Virus record (IMG/VR): IMGVR_UViG_2681813320_000006
Location: 1 to 9,891 of that record
DNA: 9,891 bases
Reading direction: 5' to 3' (one strand)
Source of the DNA: a virus
Lineage: Duplodnaviria; Heunggongvirae; Uroviricota; Caudoviricetes
Positions 1 to 9,891 of this stretch are shown here, piece after piece (positions within the stretch are counted from its first letter, which is position 1; each line of letters opens with the position of its first letter). Under the pieces are notes generated by a model. That model was not told where the DNA came from and ran no database searches. It saw only the letters and a list, made by a program, of their open reading frames with translations. The position numbers and the translations under genes were made by a program.

Positions 1-7
1 AAAAAAA

Positions 8-175
8 TCAAGCATTATGCAGGCTGTTTCTTTTTATCACCGGCCACAGCAATACCACAATGCCGCAGACCAGCACTCCATCCGCCAGCACCGACATGAT
101 CCTGCTGGTGAAATCCACCATCACCACCAGAAACAGCAGGAGTGCCACAGCGGCCAGACGCAGTTTTACCGTCAC
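8..175 (-). CDS. Possible small two-helix membrane protein (about 55 aa); could be holin-like, very uncertain
   Basis: Minus-strand ORF not in the supplied track. GTG at 175-173 overlaps the TerB-like stop (GTGA) with GGAG about 8 nt upstream; stop TGA at 10-8. Translation has two hydrophobic stretches (LRLAAVALLLFLVVMV, GVLVCGIVVLLWPVI). An internal ATG at 121 is an alternative start. The G/T-rich strand could produce hydrophobic codons by chance. Confidence 0.3.
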   Translation of the reverse strand: MTVKLRLAAVALLLFLVVMVDFTSRIMSVLADGVLVCGIVVLLWPVIKRNSLHNA

Positions 176-603
176 AGGTGGTTCTCCAGTCGCAGGCCAA
201 GAACACCAGCAATCTCTTCCAGAACCTTACGCTCTTCCGGCTCAATTTCACCATCTGCTTCAGCAATGGCCACCGCCACATCCAGCACATCTTCCGCTTC
301 ACGCGTATCGTGTTTCACATCTTCAATTTCACGCAACGCTGCACGACGACCAATTTTAAAATTGGTGTCAAGCTGACCTGTGATCGTGGCACTGATGGCA
401 TTAATTTCTGACGTAAATGCGGACAATGCTGGCTGGTTACGTAATACCTGTTCGATCTTCGCTTTCTCTGAAGTCTCACATTCACCATCTGCATAGGCCA
501 CCAGGTAGGCAGCATTAATAACCGCCTGTGCCAGATCGCGTTTCTCAAACTTTTTAATTTCAGTTGCTGCTCTGCGGGTTTTCTTTTTGAAGATTCCAAA
601 CAT
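172..603 (-). CDS. TerB-like (tellurite-resistance TerB family) domain protein, about 143 aa
   Basis: Track ORF 172..675 trimmed to the first ATG (603-601), which has AGGA 8 nt upstream; the track start at 675 is GTG. Acidic helical protein with AYLVAYADGE...AVAIAEADGEIEPEE pattern typical of TerB-like domains (recalled, not searched). Overlapping ORFs in other frames look non-coding. Confidence 0.65.
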   Translation of the reverse strand: MFGIFKKKTRRAATEIKKFEKRDLAQAVINAAYLVAYADGECETSEKAKIEQVLRNQPALSAFTSEINAISATITGQLDTNFKIGRRAALREIEDVKHDTREAEDVLDVAVAIAEADGEIEPEERKVLEEIAGVLGLRLENHL

Positions 604-734
604 CGTGACGTTCCTTTGGGTGGGTGAGCCAACGCCCGGGAGCGATCTGCCCACAGAGAAAGTCACACTGACCACTCCGTAAGCTCACCCCCGAAAGGCT
701 CTGTGGTTGATATGCGCCGGGCGTGGCGCAGATA

Positions 735-759
735 CAAAAAAGGCCCGCCGAAGCGAGCC
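735..759 (-). terminator. Rho-independent terminator downstream of the tRNA cluster
   Basis: On the minus strand: 7-bp stem GGCUCGC/GCGGGCC (one G-U pair) with UUCG tetraloop (759-742), followed by a 6-T run (741-736). The pairing is better on the minus-strand transcript than on the plus. Confidence 0.65.
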
Positions 760-772
760 TGGAAAATAAGTG

Positions 773-849
773 TGGCGCGTTGTAGTGGAGTCTAACCACT
801 GACCGATTGCTTAGAAGGCAATTGCTCTGTCCGACTGAGCTAACAACGC
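773..849 (-). tRNA. tRNA-Arg (anticodon UCU), phage-encoded, with an atypical T-loop
   Basis: Reverse complement folds as a 77-nt cloverleaf: acceptor GCGTTGT/ACAACGC, D-stem GCTC/GAGC, anticodon stem ATTGC/GCAAT with loop CTTCTAA, T-stem AGTGG/CCACT, discriminator G and CCA. The T-loop is TTAGACT instead of the usual TTCGAAT. Confidence 0.7.
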
Positions 850-929
850 ATGATGCTGATAATGGACCGCCACCGGGGACTCCGAATCTCGCACAGGGTG
901 ACGTTCTTTCCTGATGAGCTAGTGGCGGT

Positions 930-1005
930 TGGTGGCCCTTGCTGGATTTGAACCAGCGACCTGGCGATTATGAGTCACTCGCTCTCACCACTGAGCTAAA
1001 GGGCC
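930..1005 (-). tRNA. tRNA with CAU anticodon, most likely tRNA-Ile2 (lysidine type); tRNA-Met not excluded
   Basis: Reverse complement GGCCCTTTAGCTCAGTGGTGAGAGCGAGTGACTCATAATCGCCAGGTCGCTGGTTCAAATCCAGCAAGGGCCACCA folds as a 76-nt cloverleaf with 7-bp acceptor stem, T-loop TTCAAAT and anticodon loop CTCATAA. It closely resembles E. coli ileX/ileY as I recall them. Confidence 0.8.
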
Positions 1006-1045
1006 GATAACATAATGATAACGTTACAGAATAAATTCAGCAATA

Positions 1046-2104
1046 TCACTCTCTCTTTCTGATTAAATTCTGTACATCCCTTGCGGTCTGCTCAAAACGT
1101 CCGGTCTCCAGCTCAACGCCAATTGCACGACGCCCCAGTGCATTCGCTGCTTTGACTGTCGAACCGGACCCCATGAAGAAATCTGCAACCAGGTCTCCCG
1201 GACGACTGCTGGCGGTAATCATTTGCCGCAACATATCTGCCGGTTTTTCACAGGGATGTTTGCCCGGATAATACTGCACAGGCTTGTGCGTCCAGACATC
1301 CGTATAAGGAACGGCTGCCGATACGGAAAAATAACGCCGCAGTGATTTGTACTCTTCCAGCAGGCTGGCATACTGCCGGTTCAGCTCACTGTATGTGCTG
1401 ACCAGTTGGTGATGTGGCTTTTCCAGTTCACCCCGCTGATGTTTCTCTTCTGCCACCCGGGCAAACAGCACCTGAAGTTTTCTGTAATCATCCTCGTTCG
1501 GTAACTGCCACTGGCTGGCACTGAACCAGTGCGACACCATGTTTTTCTTTCCTGTGGCATCCACAATCTGTTTTGCCGTTATCCCCAGAGCAGCACGCGC
1601 ATCACGAAAGTAAGAAATCAGCGGGGCCATCACATGCTGTTTCAGTGCCCTGCCCTTCGCCTCATACCCGGCATCTTTCGGGCGATATGGCCCCTGGTAA
1701 TGTTCAGCAAACAGAACGCGCTCTGTGGCAGGAAAATATGCGCGCAGACGTTCTTTATTACACCCATTCCAACGTCCGGACGGCTTCGCCCAGATGATAT
1801 GGTTAAGCACGTTGAAACGTTCACGCATCATGATCTCAATATCAGATGCCAGGCGATGCCCACAGAACAGGTAAAGGCTTCCGGCAGGTTTTAACACCCG
1901 CCAGAACTGGGCCAGACAGTGGTCCAGCCACTTAAGGTAATCTTCGTCCCCTTTCCACTGATTGTCCCAACCGTTGGGTTTCACCTTGAAGTAAGGCGGA
2001 TCGGTAACAATCAGGTCAATGGAATCATCAGGCAGGGACTGAATAAAATGCAGGCAATCAGCGTTGATTAAATCAACACTGTTTATTTTTACAGTATTTT
2101 TCAT
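1046..2104 (-). CDS. DNA methyltransferase, beta class (N6-adenine or N4-cytosine), likely an orphan phage methylase
   Basis: 352-aa ORF with ATG start. N-terminal DPPY catalytic motif (LIVTDPPYF) precedes the C-terminal AdoMet-binding motif (FFMGSGST), the order diagnostic of beta-class amino-methyltransferases. No adjacent restriction endonuclease gene is visible. Confidence 0.9.
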   Translation of the reverse strand: MKNTVKINSVDLINADCLHFIQSLPDDSIDLIVTDPPYFKVKPNGWDNQWKGDEDYLKWLDHCLAQFWRVLKPAGSLYLFCGHRLASDIEIMMRERFNVLNHIIWAKPSGRWNGCNKERLRAYFPATERVLFAEHYQGPYRPKDAGYEAKGRALKQHVMAPLISYFRDARAALGITAKQIVDATGKKNMVSHWFSASQWQLPNEDDYRKLQVLFARVAEEKHQRGELEKPHHQLVSTYSELNRQYASLLEEYKSLRRYFSVSAAVPYTDVWTHKPVQYYPGKHPCEKPADMLRQMITASSRPGDLVADFFMGSGSTVKAANALGRRAIGVELETGRFEQTARDVQNLIRKRE

Positions 2105-2254
2105 GGATCAGTAAGCGTAACTCTGGTAGGCTCACTCTGCTTTTGCGCTAAAGCAGTGGGCCGTGGTTCGCTTGTGACCAGTAAGCATGAGCGAATGGCT
2201 GGCAGGTGCTACCAACACCCACCAGCCGCCCATTTTCACAGCAGGAAACCGCCA

Positions 2255-2458
2255 TTACTGGCAGCGTCTGAATTTATTCCCGTACCCGCCGTTATCCTTC
2301 GCCAGACCCGCCAGAACTAACTGAGTCAGTATTAACTGGCACTGGGCTTCGCTTACTCCGGTAGTTCTCGTCATCATGCGTGGCGTTACCCACTTGTCAG
2401 CAGGTAAGAAATGAAGGACTGCGGCGGCGGTTTCTGTCATATCTTGCTGTTTTATCAT
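2255..2458 (-). CDS. Hypothetical small protein (about 67 aa)
   Basis: Track ORF 2255..2482 trimmed to the second ATG (2458-2456), which has AGGGA about 8 nt upstream; the first ATG at 2482 has no Shine-Dalgarno. No recognisable motif. Confidence 0.45.
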   Translation of the reverse strand: MIKQQDMTETAAAVLHFLPADKWVTPRMMTRTTGVSEAQCQLILTQLVLAGLAKDNGGYGNKFRRCQ

Positions 2459-2580
2459 GTCTTTTTCCCTTCTGGTTAACATGACATACCAATAACTCTT
2501 GTCTAAAAAGCCAGCAAGATAAAAAGTCAGTATTCACGACCACCAGCGTGTTTACTGTACTGCACCAAGTTTACAGGTAC

Positions 2581-2606
2581 AAAAAACCGCTCGACGGCGG
2601 GTTTAA
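2581..2606 (-). terminator. Possible weak rho-independent terminator (candidate tR'-like late-region terminator)
   Basis: Minus strand: 4-bp all-GC stem CCGC/GCGG (2600-2597 with 2590-2587), 6-nt loop, then a 6-T run (2586-2581). The stem is short, so the call is marginal. Confidence 0.3.
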
Positions 2607-2736
2607 GCTGTGTGGCGAAGTAACCACTCTTAACAGATTAAGATAAAATTTGCGGACCGCGGTAATTTTTTTTGCTAAATTAAAGCCATATAAAAAATAA
2701 GCCCCATAAGAAATTATTAGCATACTAAGGTTTAGC

Positions 2737-3678
2737 ATGGCTACTATTGCGCAATCAAAGAAACAAAAAAAACTTAAAATTGGTTTTTACACCAGCAGTT
2801 CTGGGACTATCCGCAGCCATTCAGTTGCTAAGCAAGCAATTGAAAATCTGTATAATACTTGCGTAACCGTTACGAATAATCATTTTGATACCATCTATAG
2901 AAATAAAAAGTTAAAAATAGCTTTTATAAATAAAGATACAAAAGCTAAATATTTCTTCGGCTACATGTCATGCTCACGAGAAGAGTATCTCCTTCCTTAT
3001 ATTGGTGATGAACACTGGAATGAGCACAACATACCACTAGATGATAAAAAATACATAGTCGAAAGAACCTATTTTTTATATTATTACGATAGTGATATTT
3101 TAATATTAACTCAAAATCATCTTGGGCCGAAAGAATCGGATTTAGCTTATCTGCTTTACAGCCAGAGTGGTAATCCTGGAAATAACTTTGCATTCCAAGC
3201 CATCTGGAAAAAAGAGAGCGTCAAAGAGCTACTTGAAACAGGAAGTACTTTGAGAAGTTGTGATATTGTCCTGGCTGCTCCCAGGAACTTTGATGCAACA
3301 AATTACCAGCTAAATAGTTCATTTTCTAAGGAACTGGTAAATATGATGGTAGGGCTGGGTGGAACACGTCTCAAGTTAAATCTAAGGGGACGTGCATCAG
3401 GGAGAGTAAAAGTCAAAGGTTATTTATCAGATCTCGTTAAGGATGGTATTAAAGAACTCCTTGAAAAAATGCCGGGAATTGTAAAAAAAGCGGCAGTAAC
3501 ACAGCCCAAAAATACCGTTGAACAAAGTCTTCTTGATCAGGTACTCATTTCAGAAAAAAACATATATACCGTTAATGGTTATGGCACTGATAGTGATGTT
3601 CTGCAAGCCATGATTTCTGCTAAAATTGATAACAATGAATACCTTAAGCAATACGATATCAGCAAAAAGAAGGTATAG
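2737..3678 (+). CDS. Soluble 313-aa protein of unknown function; candidate sensor/activator of a two-gene phage-exclusion module (RexA-like by architecture)
   Basis: ATG at 2737 with TAAGG 6 nt upstream; stop TAG at 3676-3678. Strongly AT-rich (roughly one-third G+C by eye) with AAA/AAT/ATA-rich codon use, unlike the flanks. No Walker A, HNH or DPPY-type motifs seen. Same size class, gene order and N-terminal GFY motif as lambda RexA as I recall it. Confidence 0.8.
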   Translation: MATIAQSKKQKKLKIGFYTSSSGTIRSHSVAKQAIENLYNTCVTVTNNHFDTIYRNKKLKIAFINKDTKAKYFFGYMSCSREEYLLPYIGDEHWNEHNIPLDDKKYIVERTYFLYYYDSDILILTQNHLGPKESDLAYLLYSQSGNPGNNFAFQAIWKKESVKELLETGSTLRSCDIVLAAPRNFDATNYQLNSSFSKELVNMMVGLGGTRLKLNLRGRASGRVKVKGYLSDLVKDGIKELLEKMPGIVKKAAVTQPKNTVEQSLLDQVLISEKNIYTVNGYGTDSDVLQAMISAKIDNNEYLKQYDISKKKV

Positions 3679-3681
3679 GAT

Positions 3682-4125
3682 ATGTTATTGAAATACTTAA
3701 GAAACCTGATTGTAAGTGTTTTTTGCACCTTGTTCCTACTGAGGTATATCCCTCAGATGGGGCATGCTGACATACTTACAGCCTCCGGGGTTATTTCAAC
3801 TGTATCCGGTATTTTATTTGGTTTTATTTTAGCCACAATATCAATTTTTAGTGCTGCTAGCGAAAACTCAAATGGAATAATAAAAGCATTAAAAAACAAC
3901 AACATACTTCAAGTTATTATTGTAAATCTATTAACCGCAGGTGCATCTTTAATTACGGCATGCGTTATTGCTTTGATAGCAATGTTTGCCAATGAAAAGA
4001 CATTGTTACATGGAGAAAAAATAGAATTTATTTTAATTATCGAATCGTTATCTCTTCTTATCATTTCAGTAATAACTTTTGCCTTTACATGGAGAAAAGT
4101 AAACTGGATACTCCCCCACATTTAA
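3682..4125 (+). CDS. 147-aa integral membrane protein with four predicted transmembrane helices; candidate effector (RexB-like)
   Basis: ATG at 3682 with AAGAAGG 8 nt upstream, starting 4 bp after the upstream stop. Four hydrophobic segments (about residues 8-25, 30-58, 75-103, 114-138). The LFLLRYIP motif after helix 1 resembles lambda RexB LLFRHYIP as I recall it. Stop TAA at 4123-4125. Confidence 0.85.
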   Translation: MLLKYLRNLIVSVFCTLFLLRYIPQMGHADILTASGVISTVSGILFGFILATISIFSAASENSNGIIKALKNNNILQVIIVNLLTAGASLITACVIALIAMFANEKTLLHGEKIEFILIIESLSLLIISVITFAFTWRKVNWILPHI

Positions 4126-4148
4126 AAAGGGCAGAAATGCCCTTTTTT
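4124..4148. terminator. Bidirectional rho-independent terminator shared by the convergent cassette and the Q gene
   Basis: AAAAA-GGGCA-GAAA-TGCCC-TTTTTT: 5-bp stem (4129-4133 with 4138-4142), GAAA tetraloop, A-run on one side and T-run on the other, so it reads as hairpin plus U-tract on either strand. It sits between the cassette stop (4125) and the Q stop (4149). Confidence 0.6.
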
Positions 4149-4511
4149 CTACTCCATTTCAAGTTTAACATCCAGCATTGAAAGGCATCCATCAATAAAC
4201 CCTTCAGCCATCTGTATCTCTATACGTATCAATTTCTCATCTTTTTTGCGAGCTCTTGCAAGCTTTCTTTTCGAGATGCCATACAGGTAATGGGCCACAA
4301 TCAAAGAATGCTCGTACGGTTTTCGCTTTTTAAGAAGAGCAAGACAACCTTCAATAATTAATGCATCACTATCTGAACAAGCCTGACGTGTTTTGCTTGT
4401 ATAGGGAAGAAGCCCTTTAAACCCAGCAGCTATAGGAGAATAGTCTACTCCTGAACTATCACTCGCCGCCCATGCTCCCCAACGATCCAGAACCATTTGA
4501 ATATCACGCAT
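4149..4511 (-). CDS. Late-gene antitermination protein Q (short Q family, QuuD-like), about 120 aa
   Basis: Track ORF 4149..4526 trimmed to ATG at 4511-4509 (the track start is TTG), with GGAG about 8 nt upstream. N-terminus MRDIQMVLDRWGAWAA matches the E. coli DLP12 QuuD N-terminus as I recall it. Position after the replication module fits a Q gene. Confidence 0.75.
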   Translation of the reverse strand: MRDIQMVLDRWGAWAASDSSGVDYSPIAAGFKGLLPYTSKTRQACSDSDALIIEGCLALLKKRKPYEHSLIVAHYLYGISKRKLARARKKDEKLIRIEIQMAEGFIDGCLSMLDVKLEME

Positions 4512-4528
4512 CAACTTTCTCCACAAAA

Positions 4529-5524
4529 TCAGGCCAGCACGCCAATTGCCAGCGCGCGATCGATAAAACGAAATATCAGCTCCAGCTGGGAACCATACTT
4601 CTCTTCAAATGCCACGGTATCCGCATGCAGTTCGTCATGGTGTTTTCTGCACAAAGGCAACACAAAAAGGTCATGCGCTTTTGTACCCATACCACCCTGA
4701 CCATGACCAATCAGGTGATGAGGATCGTCGGCTGGCTTACCACAACATGCACACGGCTGCGTCTTAACCCAGCGCGTGTACTTTTCATTAACCCAGCGAC
4801 GACGTTTTGGGCGTAACATAAAAGACTCCGGCGACTCCGGATCCACTTTCAGCGCCAGCACCTTTTTCGCTTTATCCTGGATGATGCTGGTGGCAGGAAC
4901 CGAAGGCACAAGGTCACTTTCCCGGGTGACAGACGGCACAACAGGTTTCGGTAATCTCAGCGCCTTACGGGCTGCGCTTTCAGGTAAGGCATCCGCCAGG
5001 TCATTACGAATCAGCCACCAGCACAGTTCCGGCATTGTCACGGCATGGTTATCATCAAAACCGAGATCCCGACGGACTACAGACAACACCCAGCGGGCAC
5101 AGTTATCCGTTGCCATTGATTCCAGCCGTTCCGTGAACTGATCGCGCAGCTGGTTATCGCAGTGCCAGCACAGACGGATTGCGCCCGGAGCGTGTCGCAT
5201 TGTGGTCATGTTCTCGCTGTGCCAGTCGGAATGAGGCCACTGGCAGCCTTTTTCACGAAGTAACCAGCTTTCAAGACATTCCACTCCACCAGCACGACGA
5301 ATAACTGCCTCATTGCGGAACACGGCCCGAACGGCAGGATCATCCGCCAGCGGTTGTGATGCTGCCGGAACGGCACCGCTGGCGAAAGATGAATAACGTT
5401 CCGGCTCAGGCTCCAGCAGGACACGCCCCTGCATAAACAGGGGCATCAGCTCTGAACCGGGCCTGAACAATACAATCCCCATTCGCGGGGCAATTTCAGG
5501 AGTCAACAATGCTCTCACGGTCAC
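4529..5524 (-). CDS. DUF968-like prophage protein (YdfU-like) with a C-terminal Cys/His zinc-binding, HNH-like motif
   Basis: 331-aa ORF. C-terminus has CACCGKP...HHLIGHGQGGMGTKAHD...PLCRKHHDELH, a Cys/His cluster of the kind seen in DUF968/YdfU-type proteins. The track start at 5524 is GTG; a GTG at 5518 with GAGG upstream or an ATG at 5485 are alternatives, so the start is uncertain. Confidence 0.7.
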   Translation of the reverse strand: MTVRALLTPEIAPRMGIVLFRPGSELMPLFMQGRVLLEPEPERYSSFASGAVPAASQPLADDPAVRAVFRNEAVIRRAGGVECLESWLLREKGCQWPHSDWHSENMTTMRHAPGAIRLCWHCDNQLRDQFTERLESMATDNCARWVLSVVRRDLGFDDNHAVTMPELCWWLIRNDLADALPESAARKALRLPKPVVPSVTRESDLVPSVPATSIIQDKAKKVLALKVDPESPESFMLRPKRRRWVNEKYTRWVKTQPCACCGKPADDPHHLIGHGQGGMGTKAHDLFVLPLCRKHHDELHADTVAFEEKYGSQLELIFRFIDRALAIGVLA

Positions 5525-5569
5525 CTCAGCGAACGATATTGCATGAACACAGGAGAAAAAATTCAGCCA

Positions 5570-5827
5570 TCACGCAGTAAACTCCTTCACCAGAGTTTCA
5601 AACTGGCTTACCTTGCCTTCCAGTTCCGCCACGCAATCCACCAGCTCATCCACCGCCTTTTGTGTGCGGTGTTTTGCCTGCAGCAGATCACGAAGCGCCG
5701 GAGTAAGCTGCTTGCGGAGCGTATCCTTTGCCACGCTCATTTTTTCCATCTGTTCAGCACAACGAAGCATCTCCTGCGCCTGGCGACGAAGTTGTTCCGG
5801 TGAAACAGTGGCTGTTCTGTTATTCAA
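5570..5827 (-). CDS. Hypothetical small coiled-coil protein (85 aa)
   Basis: TTG start at 5827 overlaps the helicase stop (TTGA) with GGAG about 8 nt upstream, suggesting translational coupling. Charged helical sequence (EQLRRQAQEMLRCAEQMEKM...), no identifiable domain. Internal ATGs are alternative starts. Confidence 0.45.
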   Translation of the reverse strand: MNNRTATVSPEQLRRQAQEMLRCAEQMEKMSVAKDTLRKQLTPALRDLLQAKHRTQKAVDELVDCVAELEGKVSQFETLVKEFTA

Positions 5828-7224
5828 AATAAACGCTCCGCTTTACTGCCCGACATGCGGTTATTGCTGTATCTGCGCGGATTGCCCGGCGTCATGGGTG
5901 TGGAAAGCCCCCGGGCACTTTCCTGGTCCACAGGCAGAAAATGCCCGTTATGAAAACGTCGGTAAATGGTCCCGAGTGTGCCATTACGCTGTTTCGTGAT
6001 GTTGATTTCTGCTATGCCTCTCGCCTGTGTATCCGGGTTATACACCTCATCCCTGTAAAGCATCAGAATGATGTCGGCATCAGCCTCTATTTCCCCGGAG
6101 TTTTTCAGGTCTGAGTTCATGGGACGTTTATTGGGTCTGGATTCCACGCCGCGGGAGAGCTGGCTCAGAGCAATCAGCGGGAAACCGCCGGATTTTGCCA
6201 GGCTTTTAAGTCCCTTTGAGATTTCCCCCACCGCAAGGTCGTGACGCCCCGTGCTGCGGGTTTTAATCAGACCGAGGTAATCGACCACCACCAGCGCCGT
6301 TTCCGGATGCTTCATCCGGTGGTACCTCGTGGTTGCACATATCTCATCAATGGTCAGATTTGCCTGGTCCACCATCCAGATATTACGCCCCGTCATTCGT
6401 CCCACACCCTGTGAGAAACGTGCCCAGTCTTCGTCTTCAAAACGGGCAACAGACTTAAGACGGGATACCGGCATTCCCCCTGCTGCAGACACCATACGTT
6501 CACCAATCTGGATGTTCGCCATCTCCATGGTGAACAGAAGCACGCCATGCCCCTGCTCAGTCACCTTGTCGATGATGTCCAGCGCCAGTTCGGTTTTCCC
6601 CATCGAAGGACGAGCCGCAATGAATACCAGGTCGCCTGGCTCCATCCCCCCTGTTTTTGCGTCCAGTTCATCAATACCGGTCATCAGCGCCCTGGATTTC
6701 TCCAGTCCCTGATTCCGGCATTCAACACGGCCCACCACTTCCGGAAGGACATCATCAATGTGAACCGGCTGAATGACGCCCTTTCCGGTCGACAGTGAGG
6801 CCATCATGTTCTGCGCATCCTTCAGGGCATCTTCTGCCGCTTCGCAGGTATGTGCATCACGTAAATTCTGTAATGCTTCGGTCAGTGTTTTTTCTGCATC
6901 GCGCAGTACGGCATTTCGCCGCAGCGCTGCAACATAGTGCTCCAGTGAAGACTTCACCCAGGTTTTGCGCCCGGTGTCAGTAATCACCGGGGCAAGTTCC
7001 GGCATCTCATTGCACAGCAGCACGGGGTCAATGACGCCGGATACGCGGGCCTGTCTGCAAATCCCCGCGTAAATATCCCGGTACTGACGCACGAAAAATA
7101 CATCCGCCGGAAGCGTGGCCAGAATATCCATCACTTCCGGATCAGCCCCACGCAGAAAAAACGCGCCAATCACCGCACCTTCCAGGTCATCGTTACGCCA
7201 TGCCGGGTTGTTCTGGCTGGTCAT
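5824..7224 (-). CDS. Replicative DNA helicase, DnaB family (phage-encoded)
   Basis: 466-aa ORF with ATG at 7224 overlapping the upstream stop (ATGA). Walker A (ARPSMGKT), Walker B-like VVVDYLGL and DnaB-like downstream motifs (SGGFPLIALSQLSR). Size and N-terminal domain fit DnaB-type helicases such as P22 gp12. Confidence 0.92.
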   Translation of the reverse strand: MTSQNNPAWRNDDLEGAVIGAFFLRGADPEVMDILATLPADVFFVRQYRDIYAGICRQARVSGVIDPVLLCNEMPELAPVITDTGRKTWVKSSLEHYVAALRRNAVLRDAEKTLTEALQNLRDAHTCEAAEDALKDAQNMMASLSTGKGVIQPVHIDDVLPEVVGRVECRNQGLEKSRALMTGIDELDAKTGGMEPGDLVFIAARPSMGKTELALDIIDKVTEQGHGVLLFTMEMANIQIGERMVSAAGGMPVSRLKSVARFEDEDWARFSQGVGRMTGRNIWMVDQANLTIDEICATTRYHRMKHPETALVVVDYLGLIKTRSTGRHDLAVGEISKGLKSLAKSGGFPLIALSQLSRGVESRPNKRPMNSDLKNSGEIEADADIILMLYRDEVYNPDTQARGIAEINITKQRNGTLGTIYRRFHNGHFLPVDQESARGLSTPMTPGNPRRYSNNRMSGSKAERLF

Positions 7225-8099
7225 GCGGCAACACCTCCGATACGAGAACGGTAGCTGGGCCAGTTAAACGACAACCAGTTGCGCCCGCCATCGGTGATCC
7301 TGTCGGCAATCCGGGGACTGATGAACGCCCACAATTCTTCCGGTGAAAGGTTGCTGATCAAGATAGTTGGCAAAATACCCTCATACCGGGCATTGATAAT
7401 TTCCTGCAAAATGGCCATTTCAGCCGCACTGCCAAACTGAACGCCGACTTCGTCGATGATCAGCAAATCCAGTGACGCATAATGCTCAATGACGTCATCC
7501 GCTGTTTTTTCACTGTCATTCCGCCAGCAGTTTTTCACAGCACGGGTAAGGCGCATCACGTCGGTGATCTCCACACTGGCCAGATAGTTACGGATGATGT
7601 GTTTTGCCATTGATACCGCCAGATGATTTTTCCCGGTACCGCAACTGCCGGTCATAACAAGACTGGTACCGTTCTCCAGCATATCTGGCCAGTTCTCCAC
7701 ATAGCGGCGACAGGCCGCAAGATTTCTGGCTGCGTCAGGATTAACCTCCAGATAATTATCAAACTCGCAGTCCCGAAAACGCAGAGCAATTCCGGCGTTA
7801 TCAGTCAGTTCTTCCGCCTTGAGGGACGACAGCTCCATGGTCAAATCGTTGGCCTCAGCTATCAAGCAGTCAGGGCAGCATGAAATTTTTTCTCTGTCCT
7901 CGCCATTACGATCGCTCCACACCAGAATATGTGTGTGGTATTCGCCATGTTTTTCGCAACACCCGCGCCCTTCACGCATCCAGCAGGAACGATAAGGCCA
8001 TGGCTTTTCGCCCTTCTGAGCAAATGCAATCTCTGCCCGTAACTCATCCATCCGCGCCTGTAGTCTTGTTTGTTGTTCACGCAGGTTAAACGTCATCAT
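7221..8099 (-). CDS. DnaC/IstB-like AAA+ helicase loader with an N-terminal Cys-rich, probably zinc-binding, extension
   Basis: Walker A MTGSCGTGKNHLA and Walker B LLIIDEVG. Track start 8108 is GTG; the ATG at 8099 has GAGGTGA 5 nt upstream and is preferred. N-terminal region has CC...H.H...CCPDC cysteine/histidine clusters. Confidence 0.88.
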   Translation of the reverse strand: MMTFNLREQQTRLQARMDELRAEIAFAQKGEKPWPYRSCWMREGRGCCEKHGEYHTHILVWSDRNGEDREKISCCPDCLIAEANDLTMELSSLKAEELTDNAGIALRFRDCEFDNYLEVNPDAARNLAACRRYVENWPDMLENGTSLVMTGSCGTGKNHLAVSMAKHIIRNYLASVEITDVMRLTRAVKNCWRNDSEKTADDVIEHYASLDLLIIDEVGVQFGSAAEMAILQEIINARYEGILPTILISNLSPEELWAFISPRIADRITDGGRNWLSFNWPSYRSRIGGVAA

Positions 8100-8109
8100 C
8101 TCTGTCACC

Positions 8110-9018
8110 TCAGAATGTCAATTTGTCACTGGATTTACCGAATTTGTCAGACATGGCTCCCAGGCCAGCCAGGACATCGACCTGTCGCTGTCGCCCACCT
8201 CCGGGAGCAGATGGCTGTTGCCATGATTCGTCAAAGTGTCGATCGGGGCCAAAGAACGTCGACGCCTGCTTCACGAACTGAGTGCCGGTATTTCCTGAGA
8301 CACGCACCCAGGCGGCATAGCGTTTCACACCGTTGAGCATGGTTTCGGGTGTCACACCTTCCCTGATTCGGGCTTTCCAGGCTTTGAAGGCTGCTGACTT
8401 GGAATTACCACCAGCACGTTTGGGATATTCCTGCCAGGCCTGTTCAAATTCCGGTGAATATTCCTGTCGGGCAGAACGTGCTGGTGCAGACGCGTCAGCG
8501 GATGCGCCAATAGTGTTTTTACTCTCTGTAGTATTCTCTGAAGTAATCTCTGTTGTATTCTCTGTAAGATCGAAATTGGTTTTCCCTTCTCCGCGGCGAG
8601 GGGTTTCCCGTGTCCGCGGTGAAGGCTTTCCCTCCTCCGCGAAATTGGGTTTTACAGTTTCCCGAAAACGGGTTTCCCCATTTCGGGAAAACTGATTGTT
8701 TTCATTGATAATTTCATTAAGGCGCTCACAATCTATACGGTAGAACATTTTGTGCTCAAGACGCTTGTTGGTTTCAACCAAAATGCCTCTGGACACAAGA
8801 TGCTTACGCGCTACAGCCTGTTGTTCAAATGTAAGTCCTGTTTCGTGTTGTATCTCTTCACGCGTTTTATGTACGCCTTCCGCTGCATGTGCTTTATCCT
8901 GCCAGTAAAAAATCTGACCAAAGAAAATAACAGCGTGCGGACTTCCCATGTATTTAACGAGCCCAGGGTAATAAGCAACCGGATGTCCAAAATCGAGCAG
9001 AAGATCAGACGGACGCAT
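8110..9018 (-). CDS. Replication initiator (lambda O-like, origin-binding) with a repeat-encoded linker
   Basis: Track ORF 8110..9024 trimmed to ATG 9018 (GGAGGTG 5 nt upstream; the track start is GTG). The central protein region (TENTTEITSENTTESKNT, PRTRETPRRGEGKT) is encoded by DNA direct repeats, as in lambda O where the ori iterons lie inside the gene. It sits immediately upstream of the helicase-loader and helicase genes. Confidence 0.75.
   Translation of the reverse strand: MRPSDLLLDFGHPVAYYPGLVKYMGSPHAVIFFGQIFYWQDKAHAAEGVHKTREEIQHETGLTFEQQAVARKHLVSRGILVETNKRLEHKMFYRIDCERLNEIINENNQFSRNGETRFRETVKPNFAEEGKPSPRTRETPRRGEGKTNFDLTENTTEITSENTTESKNTIGASADASAPARSARQEYSPEFEQAWQEYPKRAGGNSKSAAFKAWKARIREGVTPETMLNGVKRYAAWVRVSGNTGTQFVKQASTFFGPDRHFDESWQQPSAPGGGRQRQVDVLAGLGAMSDKFGKSSDKLTF
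8523..8695. repeat. Iteron-like direct repeats inside the O-like gene (candidate replication origin) followed by an AT-rich stretch
   Basis: Four 12-bp tandem units containing TCTCTG (8523-8570). Five TTTCCC-containing units at 8581, 8603, 8627, 8658, 8673 (about 22-24 bp apart) with internal dyads such as CCCGAAAACGGG and TTTCGGGAAA. AT-rich segment at about 8690-8725. Confidence 0.6.
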
Positions 9019-9238
9019 AGCCACCTCCCAGGCGTTTAAACATTTTTCCGGACTGAAACGCCACCAGCGGATAACTCAGGGTATGAGTACGCCCCTGCAC
9101 CTGGCAGACAACCTTCTGACTTTCTGCATTGACCAGGCAAACCCGCAGAACGTGGCCGTTGCTGGTGGTGAACCACTGCCCCACACGGGGGCAACGGTTG
9201 TATCGGTGATACAGGGAATTAACGATGTAGCGGATCAT
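9005..9238 (-). CDS. Hypothetical small protein (77 aa)
   Basis: ATG at 9238 with GGAGGTG 5 nt upstream, overlapping the upstream stop (ATGA). Its 3' end overlaps the O-like start by 14 nt. No recognisable domain. Confidence 0.55.
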   Translation of the reverse strand: MIRYIVNSLYHRYNRCPRVGQWFTTSNGHVLRVCLVNAESQKVVCQVQGRTHTLSYPLVAFQSGKMFKRLGGGYASV

Positions 9239-9429
9239 GGACGCACCTCCGCCGTAGTTACGTATTTAACTGGGCTACCTTTCATTGAGATGGTTTCACA
9301 CATCCCTGCCGCTTTCAGTTCCGCCGTTTTTCTGGATTTATAGCGACGATGCCAGACAGATACATCCGTGCGAACTGATACATCGTTTCTGTATTCCGTA
9401 GTGGAGATGATGATTTCGTAACTAATCAT
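9235..9429 (-). CDS. Hypothetical small protein (64 aa)
   Basis: ATG at 9429 with AAGGAGGTG 5 nt upstream, overlapping the upstream stop (ATGA). Part of a translationally coupled chain of minus-strand genes. Confidence 0.5.
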   Translation of the reverse strand: MISYEIIISTTEYRNDVSVRTDVSVWHRRYKSRKTAELKAAGMCETISMKGSPVKYVTTAEVRP

Positions 9430-9731
9430 GGGTGCACCTCCTTGTCAGAACCATTCAGCCTGTAATCAACAAGTGCAGCACCAAAAACTGCATCACCTAC
9501 ACGGTCGTACAGTTTGCCAGCCAGCGGAGATTCAACGGCCTTAAGCATTGGATAAAGCTGGCTTGTCCAGATTTGGTGGATTTCTCGCAAATGCAGGTAT
9601 ACGCCTCTGGCGTTTTGTGCGACAGATGGCATATCAGCCGCACCAACTCCTGATAAGCACCTCTCCATCTGGTTAAAGGCATTGATGTATGCTTCTTTGA
9701 ACCGGGCAGCACGTTTACCCGTGAAACCCAT
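9426..9731 (-). CDS. C-terminal portion of a Rha-like (Phage_pRha-type) regulatory protein; N-terminal part appears interrupted or truncated
   Basis: The reading frame stays open upstream of ATG 9731 to a TAA at 9851-9849 and encodes ...SEYTDASGRKLPCYQITRDGFAFLAMGFTGKRAARFKEAYINAFNQME, which resembles the conserved core of Rha-family proteins as I recall it. No ATG/GTG/TTG start lies between that stop and 9731, and 9731 has no Shine-Dalgarno. Confidence 0.45.
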   Translation of the reverse strand: MGFTGKRAARFKEAYINAFNQMERCLSGVGAADMPSVAQNARGVYLHLREIHQIWTSQLYPMLKAVESPLAGKLYDRVGDAVFGAALVDYRLNGSDKEVHP

Positions 9732-9891
9732 AGCAAGAAACGCAAAACCGTCGCGGGTGATTTGGTAACAAGGGAGTTTGCGGCCTGATGCGTCGGTGTA
9801 TTCACTTAACAGTAAGCGTGCAGCAAGAACCGTATTGACGGGGATGTGTTATTCAGTCGGCAGTGCTACGCGCCAGGGGAGCAGTTCGCCG

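Follow-up and report, generated by a model that had tools for sequence, protein, structure and literature searches.

A putative RexAB-like exclusion cassette in a variable slot downstream of Q in cdtI-like lambdoid prophages

What is the function of a 313-residue protein that carries no recognizable enzymatic motif and is encoded, next to a small membrane protein, among the replication and late genes of a lambdoid prophage? The window analysed here is the whole 9,891-nucleotide stretch of IMG/VR record IMGVR_UViG_2681813320_000006 (positions 1–9,891), in which gene A runs from ATG to TAG at 2737–3678 on the plus strand and encodes a basic cytoplasmic protein (pI 9.2) of the Pfam family DUF6731. 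The ORF and the Lys/Asn-rich composition reported in an initial annotation, made from the sequence alone, were confirmed (10.9% Lys, 7.0% Asn), and the absence of catalytic signatures that it described also holds: a motif scan detected neither a Walker A motif nor a [DNS]PP[YFW] methyltransferase motif, and Pfam, NCBIfam and PADLOC returned no catalytic domain. A catalytic enzyme was therefore rejected as an identity for gene A. A Shine-Dalgarno-like TAAGG (2726–2730, plus strand) lies 6 nt 5' of the start codon, and ACTAAGG and GCTAAGG are kept ahead of the gene in relatives of 87% and 61% identity. Comparison with relatives of 87% and 82% identity gave a pN of 0.08–0.12 and a saturated pS of 0.79 (pN/pS ~0.10–0.15); the low pN alongside saturated pS indicates that gene A is a genuine, translated gene under strong purifying selection.

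Two database features of gene A homologues deserve mention. The longest ORF containing gene A in two viral contigs spans 415–423 aa, which may be an upstream in-frame extension or an artefact of first-start-codon choice. An 87%-identical homologue in Escherichia phages vB_EcoS-733R5 (ON470608.1, 30253–31191) and vB_EcoS-716R3 (ON470622.1, 15461–16399) is labelled 'portal (connector) protein', and this label is almost certainly a misannotation.

The match to DUF6731 (PF20505) covers residues 34–260 with 41.3 bits (E 1.8e-10), compared with a curated gathering threshold of 27 bits, and DUF6731 is the sole Pfam family above threshold. RefSeq names the identical gene A product 'DUF6731 family protein' and that of gene B, its downstream neighbour, 'hypothetical protein'; no paper in the searchable literature names DUF6731, and no direct test of the family was found in the literature searched. 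Close homologues of gene A form 45 clusters, and an exhaustive profile search retrieved 234 representatives at E≤1e-3; the family was encountered in Escherichia, Citrobacter, Klebsiella, Yersinia, Serratia, Pectobacterium, Xenorhabdus, Vibrio and others. At 50% identity the family comprises at least 234 clusters, which occur in prophages and in some cases adjoin a repressor gene. A scan of the genome collection with the close alignment found three loci only, and the cassette DNA is present in 25 of 5426 complete E. coli genomes. A 341-aa homologue (38% identity) with a 150-aa partner overlapping it by one base was also seen in Vibrio cholerae and V. fluvialis (5001–6478 in contigs L002 and L003), where the surroundings are chromosomal and non-prophage, near toxR/toxS and htpG; the gene pair thus also moves outside phages.

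The Pfam and PADLOC models of RexA, which recover the lambda protein at 1e-97 and 9e-110 respectively, gave no match to the gene A protein at E≤1, and PADLOC-DB v2 (including Kiwa KwaA/KwaB) held no family at E≤1 for protein A or protein B. No match for protein A was found in NCBIfam, and PHROGs returned only families of unknown function. Against PDB sequences, phmmer with the gene A protein yielded chance matches only, and hmmsearch with the deep gene A profile missed RexA, its best match being eIF2-alpha (E 0.04).

The initial annotation had noted that the N-terminal KIGFYTSSSG resembles the start of lambda RexA and had proposed either a phage-component sensor of a new fold or a very divergent RexA. 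In agreement with its remark that overall similarity is not evident by eye, BLASTP of the gene A protein against RexA gave an E of 0.25 and aligned only HLGPKESDL with FGPTTSDL. Remote homology was then sought with hhalign, using a DUF6731 profile built from 140 of the relatives of gene A, 124 of which match Pfam DUF6731 and none Pfam RexA. Comparison of this profile with a 23-sequence RexA profile gave a probability of 90.4% (E 1.4e-6, score 49.8) over nearly the full length of both (15–296 versus 2–272), while controls in which the RexA columns were reversed or locally shuffled reached a probability of at most 0.5% and a score of at most 17.6. The alignment pairs KIGFY (residues 14–18) of gene A with KNGFY (residues 2–6) of RexA, whose N-terminus reads MKNGFYATYRS, and the resemblance described in the initial annotation is thus real. 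A shallow close-family profile gave no significant match to RexA (probability 0.9%); for RexA, as for RexB below, the signal is seen only with deeper and more diverse alignments and not with close-family profiles.

Structure prediction followed by Foldseek comparison, which had also been suggested, led to the same protein. An AlphaFold2 model of gene A (30 homologues in the input; mean pLDDT 80, pTM 0.75) retrieved RexA (8TWQ) first from the PDB with an E of 1.8e-7 and a probability of 1.0, followed by RdgC (E 6.5e-5) and then by CENP-N and CENP-L; in a separate structure comparison CHL4 (7.5), CENP-N (7.0), RdgC (6.9) and IML3 (6.5) came next. The structural relatives that the crystallographers of RexA reported (PMC11077077) include RdgC, IML3 and CHL4. 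The model comprises an N-terminal β-rich globular part (residues ~1–150) of six to seven strands plus helices, an inserted domain (residues ~160–280) of four strands and three helices, and C-terminal helices (residues 285–306), and this order of elements is that of 8TWQ, where a split globular domain receives an inserted four-strand/helix dimerization domain. A different orientation of the two domains accounts for the low global TM-score against RexA (0.33), and RexA itself is thought to move between closed and open states (PMC11077077). As modelled, gene A has the RexA/RdgC-type two-domain fold, and the clear match to RexA led us to reject a new fold. Membership of the RdgC family was likewise rejected: RdgC (PDB 2OWL), a recombination-associated DNA-binding ring, is a much weaker match than RexA and acts alone, as a housekeeping protein that has no membrane partner.

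Such a partner is encoded immediately downstream of gene A. Gene B (3682–4125, plus strand) specifies a membrane protein of 147 aa for which four transmembrane helices are predicted; the gene starts 3 nt past the stop codon of gene A and has GAAGG 8 nt 5' of its ATG, a spacing from which we infer that the two genes are probably co-transcribed and translationally linked. Its hydrophobic segments (2–20, 37–55, 78–96 and 116–134) compare with those of RexB (8–26, 42–60, 84–102 and 116–134), and its pN/pS is 0.24–0.28. A partner ORF of 113–157 aa adjoins gene A in 90 of 91 related loci, and the sole locus without one has a truncated gene A. One truncated copy aside, the partners are 143–157 aa long, and their starts range from 38 nt ahead of the gene A stop codon to 28 nt past it; most have four predicted membrane helices, and the pairing extends to members at only ~20–35% identity. 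Distant partners and RexB share the TM2 motif S-x-x-A-G/A-T-L-L-G-F-x-I-A-A-L, followed by a basic loop that ends in G-H or G-Y.

The Pfam and PADLOC RexB models did not match the gene B protein, although they recovered lambda RexB. In hhalign comparisons with RexB the probability was 28.8% for the close partner set alone, 76.3% (E 2e-5) for close and distant partners together and 91.9% (E 7e-7) for distant partners alone, the last over 84 columns that span TM2, the loop and TM3. Reversed and shuffled controls scored at most 22 (probability at most 4.8%) compared with 37–45 for the real comparisons, so the signal exceeds mere membrane-protein composition. The AlphaFold2 model of gene B (pLDDT 83.7) has four long helices and a short helix (66–72) in the loop that joins helices two and three, and the second-best Foldseek match in the viral library was a 165-aa protein of mycobacteriophage Sbash (probability 0.99, TM-score ~0.5), which by length only corresponds to gp31, the RexB-like half of Sbash gp30/31. 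Gene B thus appears to encode a RexB-like four-helix inner-membrane protein.

The position of the gene pair marks it as an accessory element. The GC profile and alignments delimit an inserted cassette, or moron, of ~1.47 kb at 2677–4148 (plus strand), with a GC content of 0.33–0.37 compared with 0.50–0.56 in the flanks. It lies between the stop codon of the antiterminator gene Q and a conserved block downstream of Q, on the strand opposite to Q. In PPyecE_EH1910, which has no cassette (locus 2001–2177), Q abuts the conserved block that matches 2440–2676 of the window, from which it follows that the cassette is an insert separating the Q stop codon from this block. PhiR40_1 carries an unrelated 148-aa opposite-strand gene at the same place (locus 2730–3176), which was considered as a relative of the partner protein and rejected, and cassette variants of only 44% identity fill the slot in other E. 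coli prophages. Phages differ in what they carry in this slot between Q and the conserved block: nothing, an unrelated gene or a Rex-like cassette. This marks the slot as a site for opposite-strand morons in cdtI-like prophages and shows a RexAB-like module at a new genomic position in E. coli prophages.

The surrounding segment is the replication-to-late-gene part of a cdtI-like lambdoid prophage; positions 2500–4200 are 99.5% identical to phage cdtI, in which the counterparts of genes A and B are orf54 and orf53, both 'hypothetical protein'. The backbone genes are on the minus strand and encode an O-like replication protein (8110–9024), a DnaC-like protein (7221–8108), a DnaB-type helicase (5824–7224), a DUF968/HNH protein (4529–5524), Q (4149–4526), a 75-aa backbone protein of phrog_331 (2255–2482) and a DNA methyltransferase (1046–2104). 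The 75-aa ORF is weakly similar to the Ren-like exclusion family phrog_142 (E 0.018). Between the methyltransferase gene and an ORF with a TerB (tellurite-resistance) domain, ARAGORN identified tRNA-Arg(TCT) (773–849) and a CAT-anticodon tRNA (930–1005), also on the minus strand; the latter is Met according to ARAGORN and tRNA-Ile for the equivalent gene in RefSeq. tRNA clusters lie downstream of Q in Stx-type phages, and the tRNA pair of the window is similar. The TerB-domain ORF (172–675, minus strand; Pfam E 4.8e-16), which RefSeq annotates in a related prophage at a shorter length of 432 nt, may be another moron; cdtI has its lysis genes at the corresponding place.

Candidate transcription signals were found at both ends of the cassette. 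The convergent genes B (stop codon 4125) and Q (stop codon 4149) are separated by a hairpin, AAAAAGGGCA-GAAA-UGCCCUUUUU (4124–4147), that has an A-run at one flank and a U-run at the other and folds with -13.4 kcal/mol (z -4.2) on the plus strand and -13.0 kcal/mol (z -2.7) on the minus strand. It looks like a bidirectional intrinsic terminator; the consensus scan did not report it. The left junction (2650–2676) is phage backbone and consists of the palindrome TTGCGGACCGCGG followed by a T-run. Many cassette variants retain this palindrome ~70–90 nt ahead of gene A, it also adjoins Q in phages without a cassette, and it may be part of the late-promoter/Q-utilization region or a terminator. Within the conserved block, a terminator-like hairpin GCCGTCGAGCGGT followed by TTTTTT (2586–2598, minus strand) is a candidate terminator for the short late leader transcript where Q acts. 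A promoter for the cassette must lie between the left junction and 2736; a sigma-70 consensus scan of the plus strand upstream of gene A gave no promoter match, and inspection of several cassette variants by eye gave no convincing conserved -35/-10 pair.

Taken together, these data make it likely, in our judgement, that 2737–4125 is a two-gene RexAB-like exclusion moron of the abortive-infection type. We regard the gene A protein as a very distant relative of RexA and an addition to the RexAB-like exclusion systems. Of the two proposals in the initial annotation, the very divergent RexA is supported by the full-length profile homology, the RexB-like partner and the context, in which some distant members adjoin a repressor gene, and the new-fold sensor is not supported, the fold being a known one. 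In the Pseudomonas phage AUS531phi a DUF6731 gene (E 8.6e-13) comes directly after the gene of a Cro/CI-family repressor and ahead of a membrane-protein ORF, which is the cI-rexA-rexB order of lambda; in the P0150 locus a DUF6731 gene lies downstream of a Peptidase_S24 repressor gene with a 158-aa ORF between them. The pair in the window lies outside the immunity region and does not follow cI.

Genes A and B probably form a Rex-type module by which the prophage blocks other phages, and a mechanism can be proposed by analogy with lambda RexAB, Pseudomonas putida RexABpp, Sbash gp30/31 and Sucellos. The lysogen would make proteins A and B from the cassette's own promoter. Upon infection by another phage, protein A, acting as the phage-component sensor envisaged at the outset, would detect a phage product or a DNA–protein intermediate and then switch on protein B, which would permeabilize or depolarize the membrane so that growth stops and the infection is aborted. 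Like RexA and the tested homologues, protein A is most likely a dimer and a non-specific DNA clamp; its basic pI and its predicted fold are consistent with DNA binding. For lambda RexA itself, there is no simple correlation between DNA binding and exclusion.

The direction of signalling between the two proteins could be the opposite, with protein A as an antiviral or toxic effector, for instance a DNA clamp, that is held by protein B until infection. Butters gp30/gp31, whose two proteins have reversed roles according to PMC12894663, provide a precedent, so the signalling direction cannot be read from homology; the basic character of protein A and a DNA-clamp fold related to RdgC fit such an effector, and the strict co-occurrence of A and B fits either logic. 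Nevertheless, the membrane protein is the effector in lambda and in three of the four other Rex-like pairs described in the same source, and Sucellos is reported to need both genes, and we consider the reversed arrangement unlikely. It is equally improbable, in our view, that the likeness to RexA and RexB reflects a shared ancient fold only and that the pair serves membrane-associated DNA handling or host fitness, as might be argued from the ~13% identity with RexA and from the unrelated roles of CHL4, CENP-N and IML3, which share the fold.

A slightly poorer candidate still is a function of protein A in the prophage's own life cycle, in the lysogeny/lysis switch or, as for RdgC, in recombination or with RecA, with exclusion secondary or absent. 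[quoted passage not shown] Against this, the cassette lies at a long distance from the immunity region and is rare among complete E. coli genomes, the slot it fills can hold an unrelated gene (PhiR40_1) or nothing (PPyecE_EH1910) and the cassette is therefore dispensable for the phage, and the obligate membrane partner would be left unexplained.

The RexAB-like reading can be extended tentatively. DUF6731 proteins and their four-helix partners might constitute a large unnamed branch of RexAB systems apart from Sucellos and RexABpp, in which the E. coli cassette has its own trigger specificity and could be switched off in lytic growth by read-through from Q. The cassette is convergent with Q and divergent from the conserved block, and silencing by Q read-through is conceivable in this arrangement; we hold the extended proposal as a whole to be possible but doubtful.

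To our knowledge, no phage exclusion system has been known for longer than Rex, and both the signal that RexA senses and the mode of RexB opening are unsettled. The relationship described here ties an uncharacterized family, DUF6731, and its unannotated partner to RexA and RexB, which suggests a possible function for several hundred protein clusters and explains why PADLOC-DB v2 (2023) misses them. With it, a small second Rex-type pair that is native to E. coli becomes available for comparison with that of lambda in the same host and with the same phage collections.

Lambda RexA/RexB (8TWQ; PF15969/PF15968) is one of the closest points of comparison. Both modules are carried by temperate lambdoid phages of E. 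coli and have the same gene order, a cytoplasmic protein of ~280–310 aa followed by a four-helix protein of ~145 aa, with homology over the full-length profile for A and over TM2-loop-TM3 for B, and gene A shares the N-terminal K-x-G-F-Y and G-P-x-x-S/D-L motifs of RexA. The proteins differ in that protein A is 34 residues longer and only ~13% identical, and neither cassette protein is recognized by the Pfam or PADLOC HMMs for RexA and RexB. Whereas rexAB belongs to the cI immunity operon, the cassette lies between Q and the conserved block on the opposite strand, and is therefore not under PRM control; an immunity-region position is not universal among accepted Rex-like systems.

RexABpp of P. 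putida prophage P1 (PP_5643/PP_5644; PMC12894663) is also prophage-borne. It had the same computational signature and was then shown to provide phage defence, DNA binding and RexB-dependent membrane damage (PMC12894663), but it lies near a Cro/CI repressor gene and in another host. Its primer-derived terminal peptides had no match among the proteins compared, and exact DNA patterns of RexABpp were absent from the viral and metagenome collections. Sucellos (SclA/SclB; V. cholerae superintegron cassette 68; bioRxiv 10.1101/2024.07.02.601686) is described as RexAB-like in structure with no Pfam RexA match, and comprises two genes that are both needed for defence, SclB being a predicted membrane pore. 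Outside integrons it occurs mostly in enterobacterial prophages; it is reported mainly from Salmonella prophages and integrons, whereas the DUF6731 family extends from Escherichia to Vibrio. Either Sucellos or RexABpp could belong to the same family as the DUF6731 cassette.

The actinobacteriophage pairs (Sbash gp30/gp31, CarolAnn gp44/gp43 and Butters gp30/gp31) have larger RexA-like proteins (337–372 aa) and Gram-positive hosts. hhalign of the DUF6731 profile with Sbash gp30 gave no sequence-level link (probability 0.2%), and neither Sbash gp30 nor gp31 has a Pfam match. The organization is nonetheless the same, a RexA-like protein and a four-helix membrane protein expressed from a prophage; Sbash gp30 dimerizes and binds DNA, and the 165-aa Sbash protein that resembles the gene B model has the same length as gp31.
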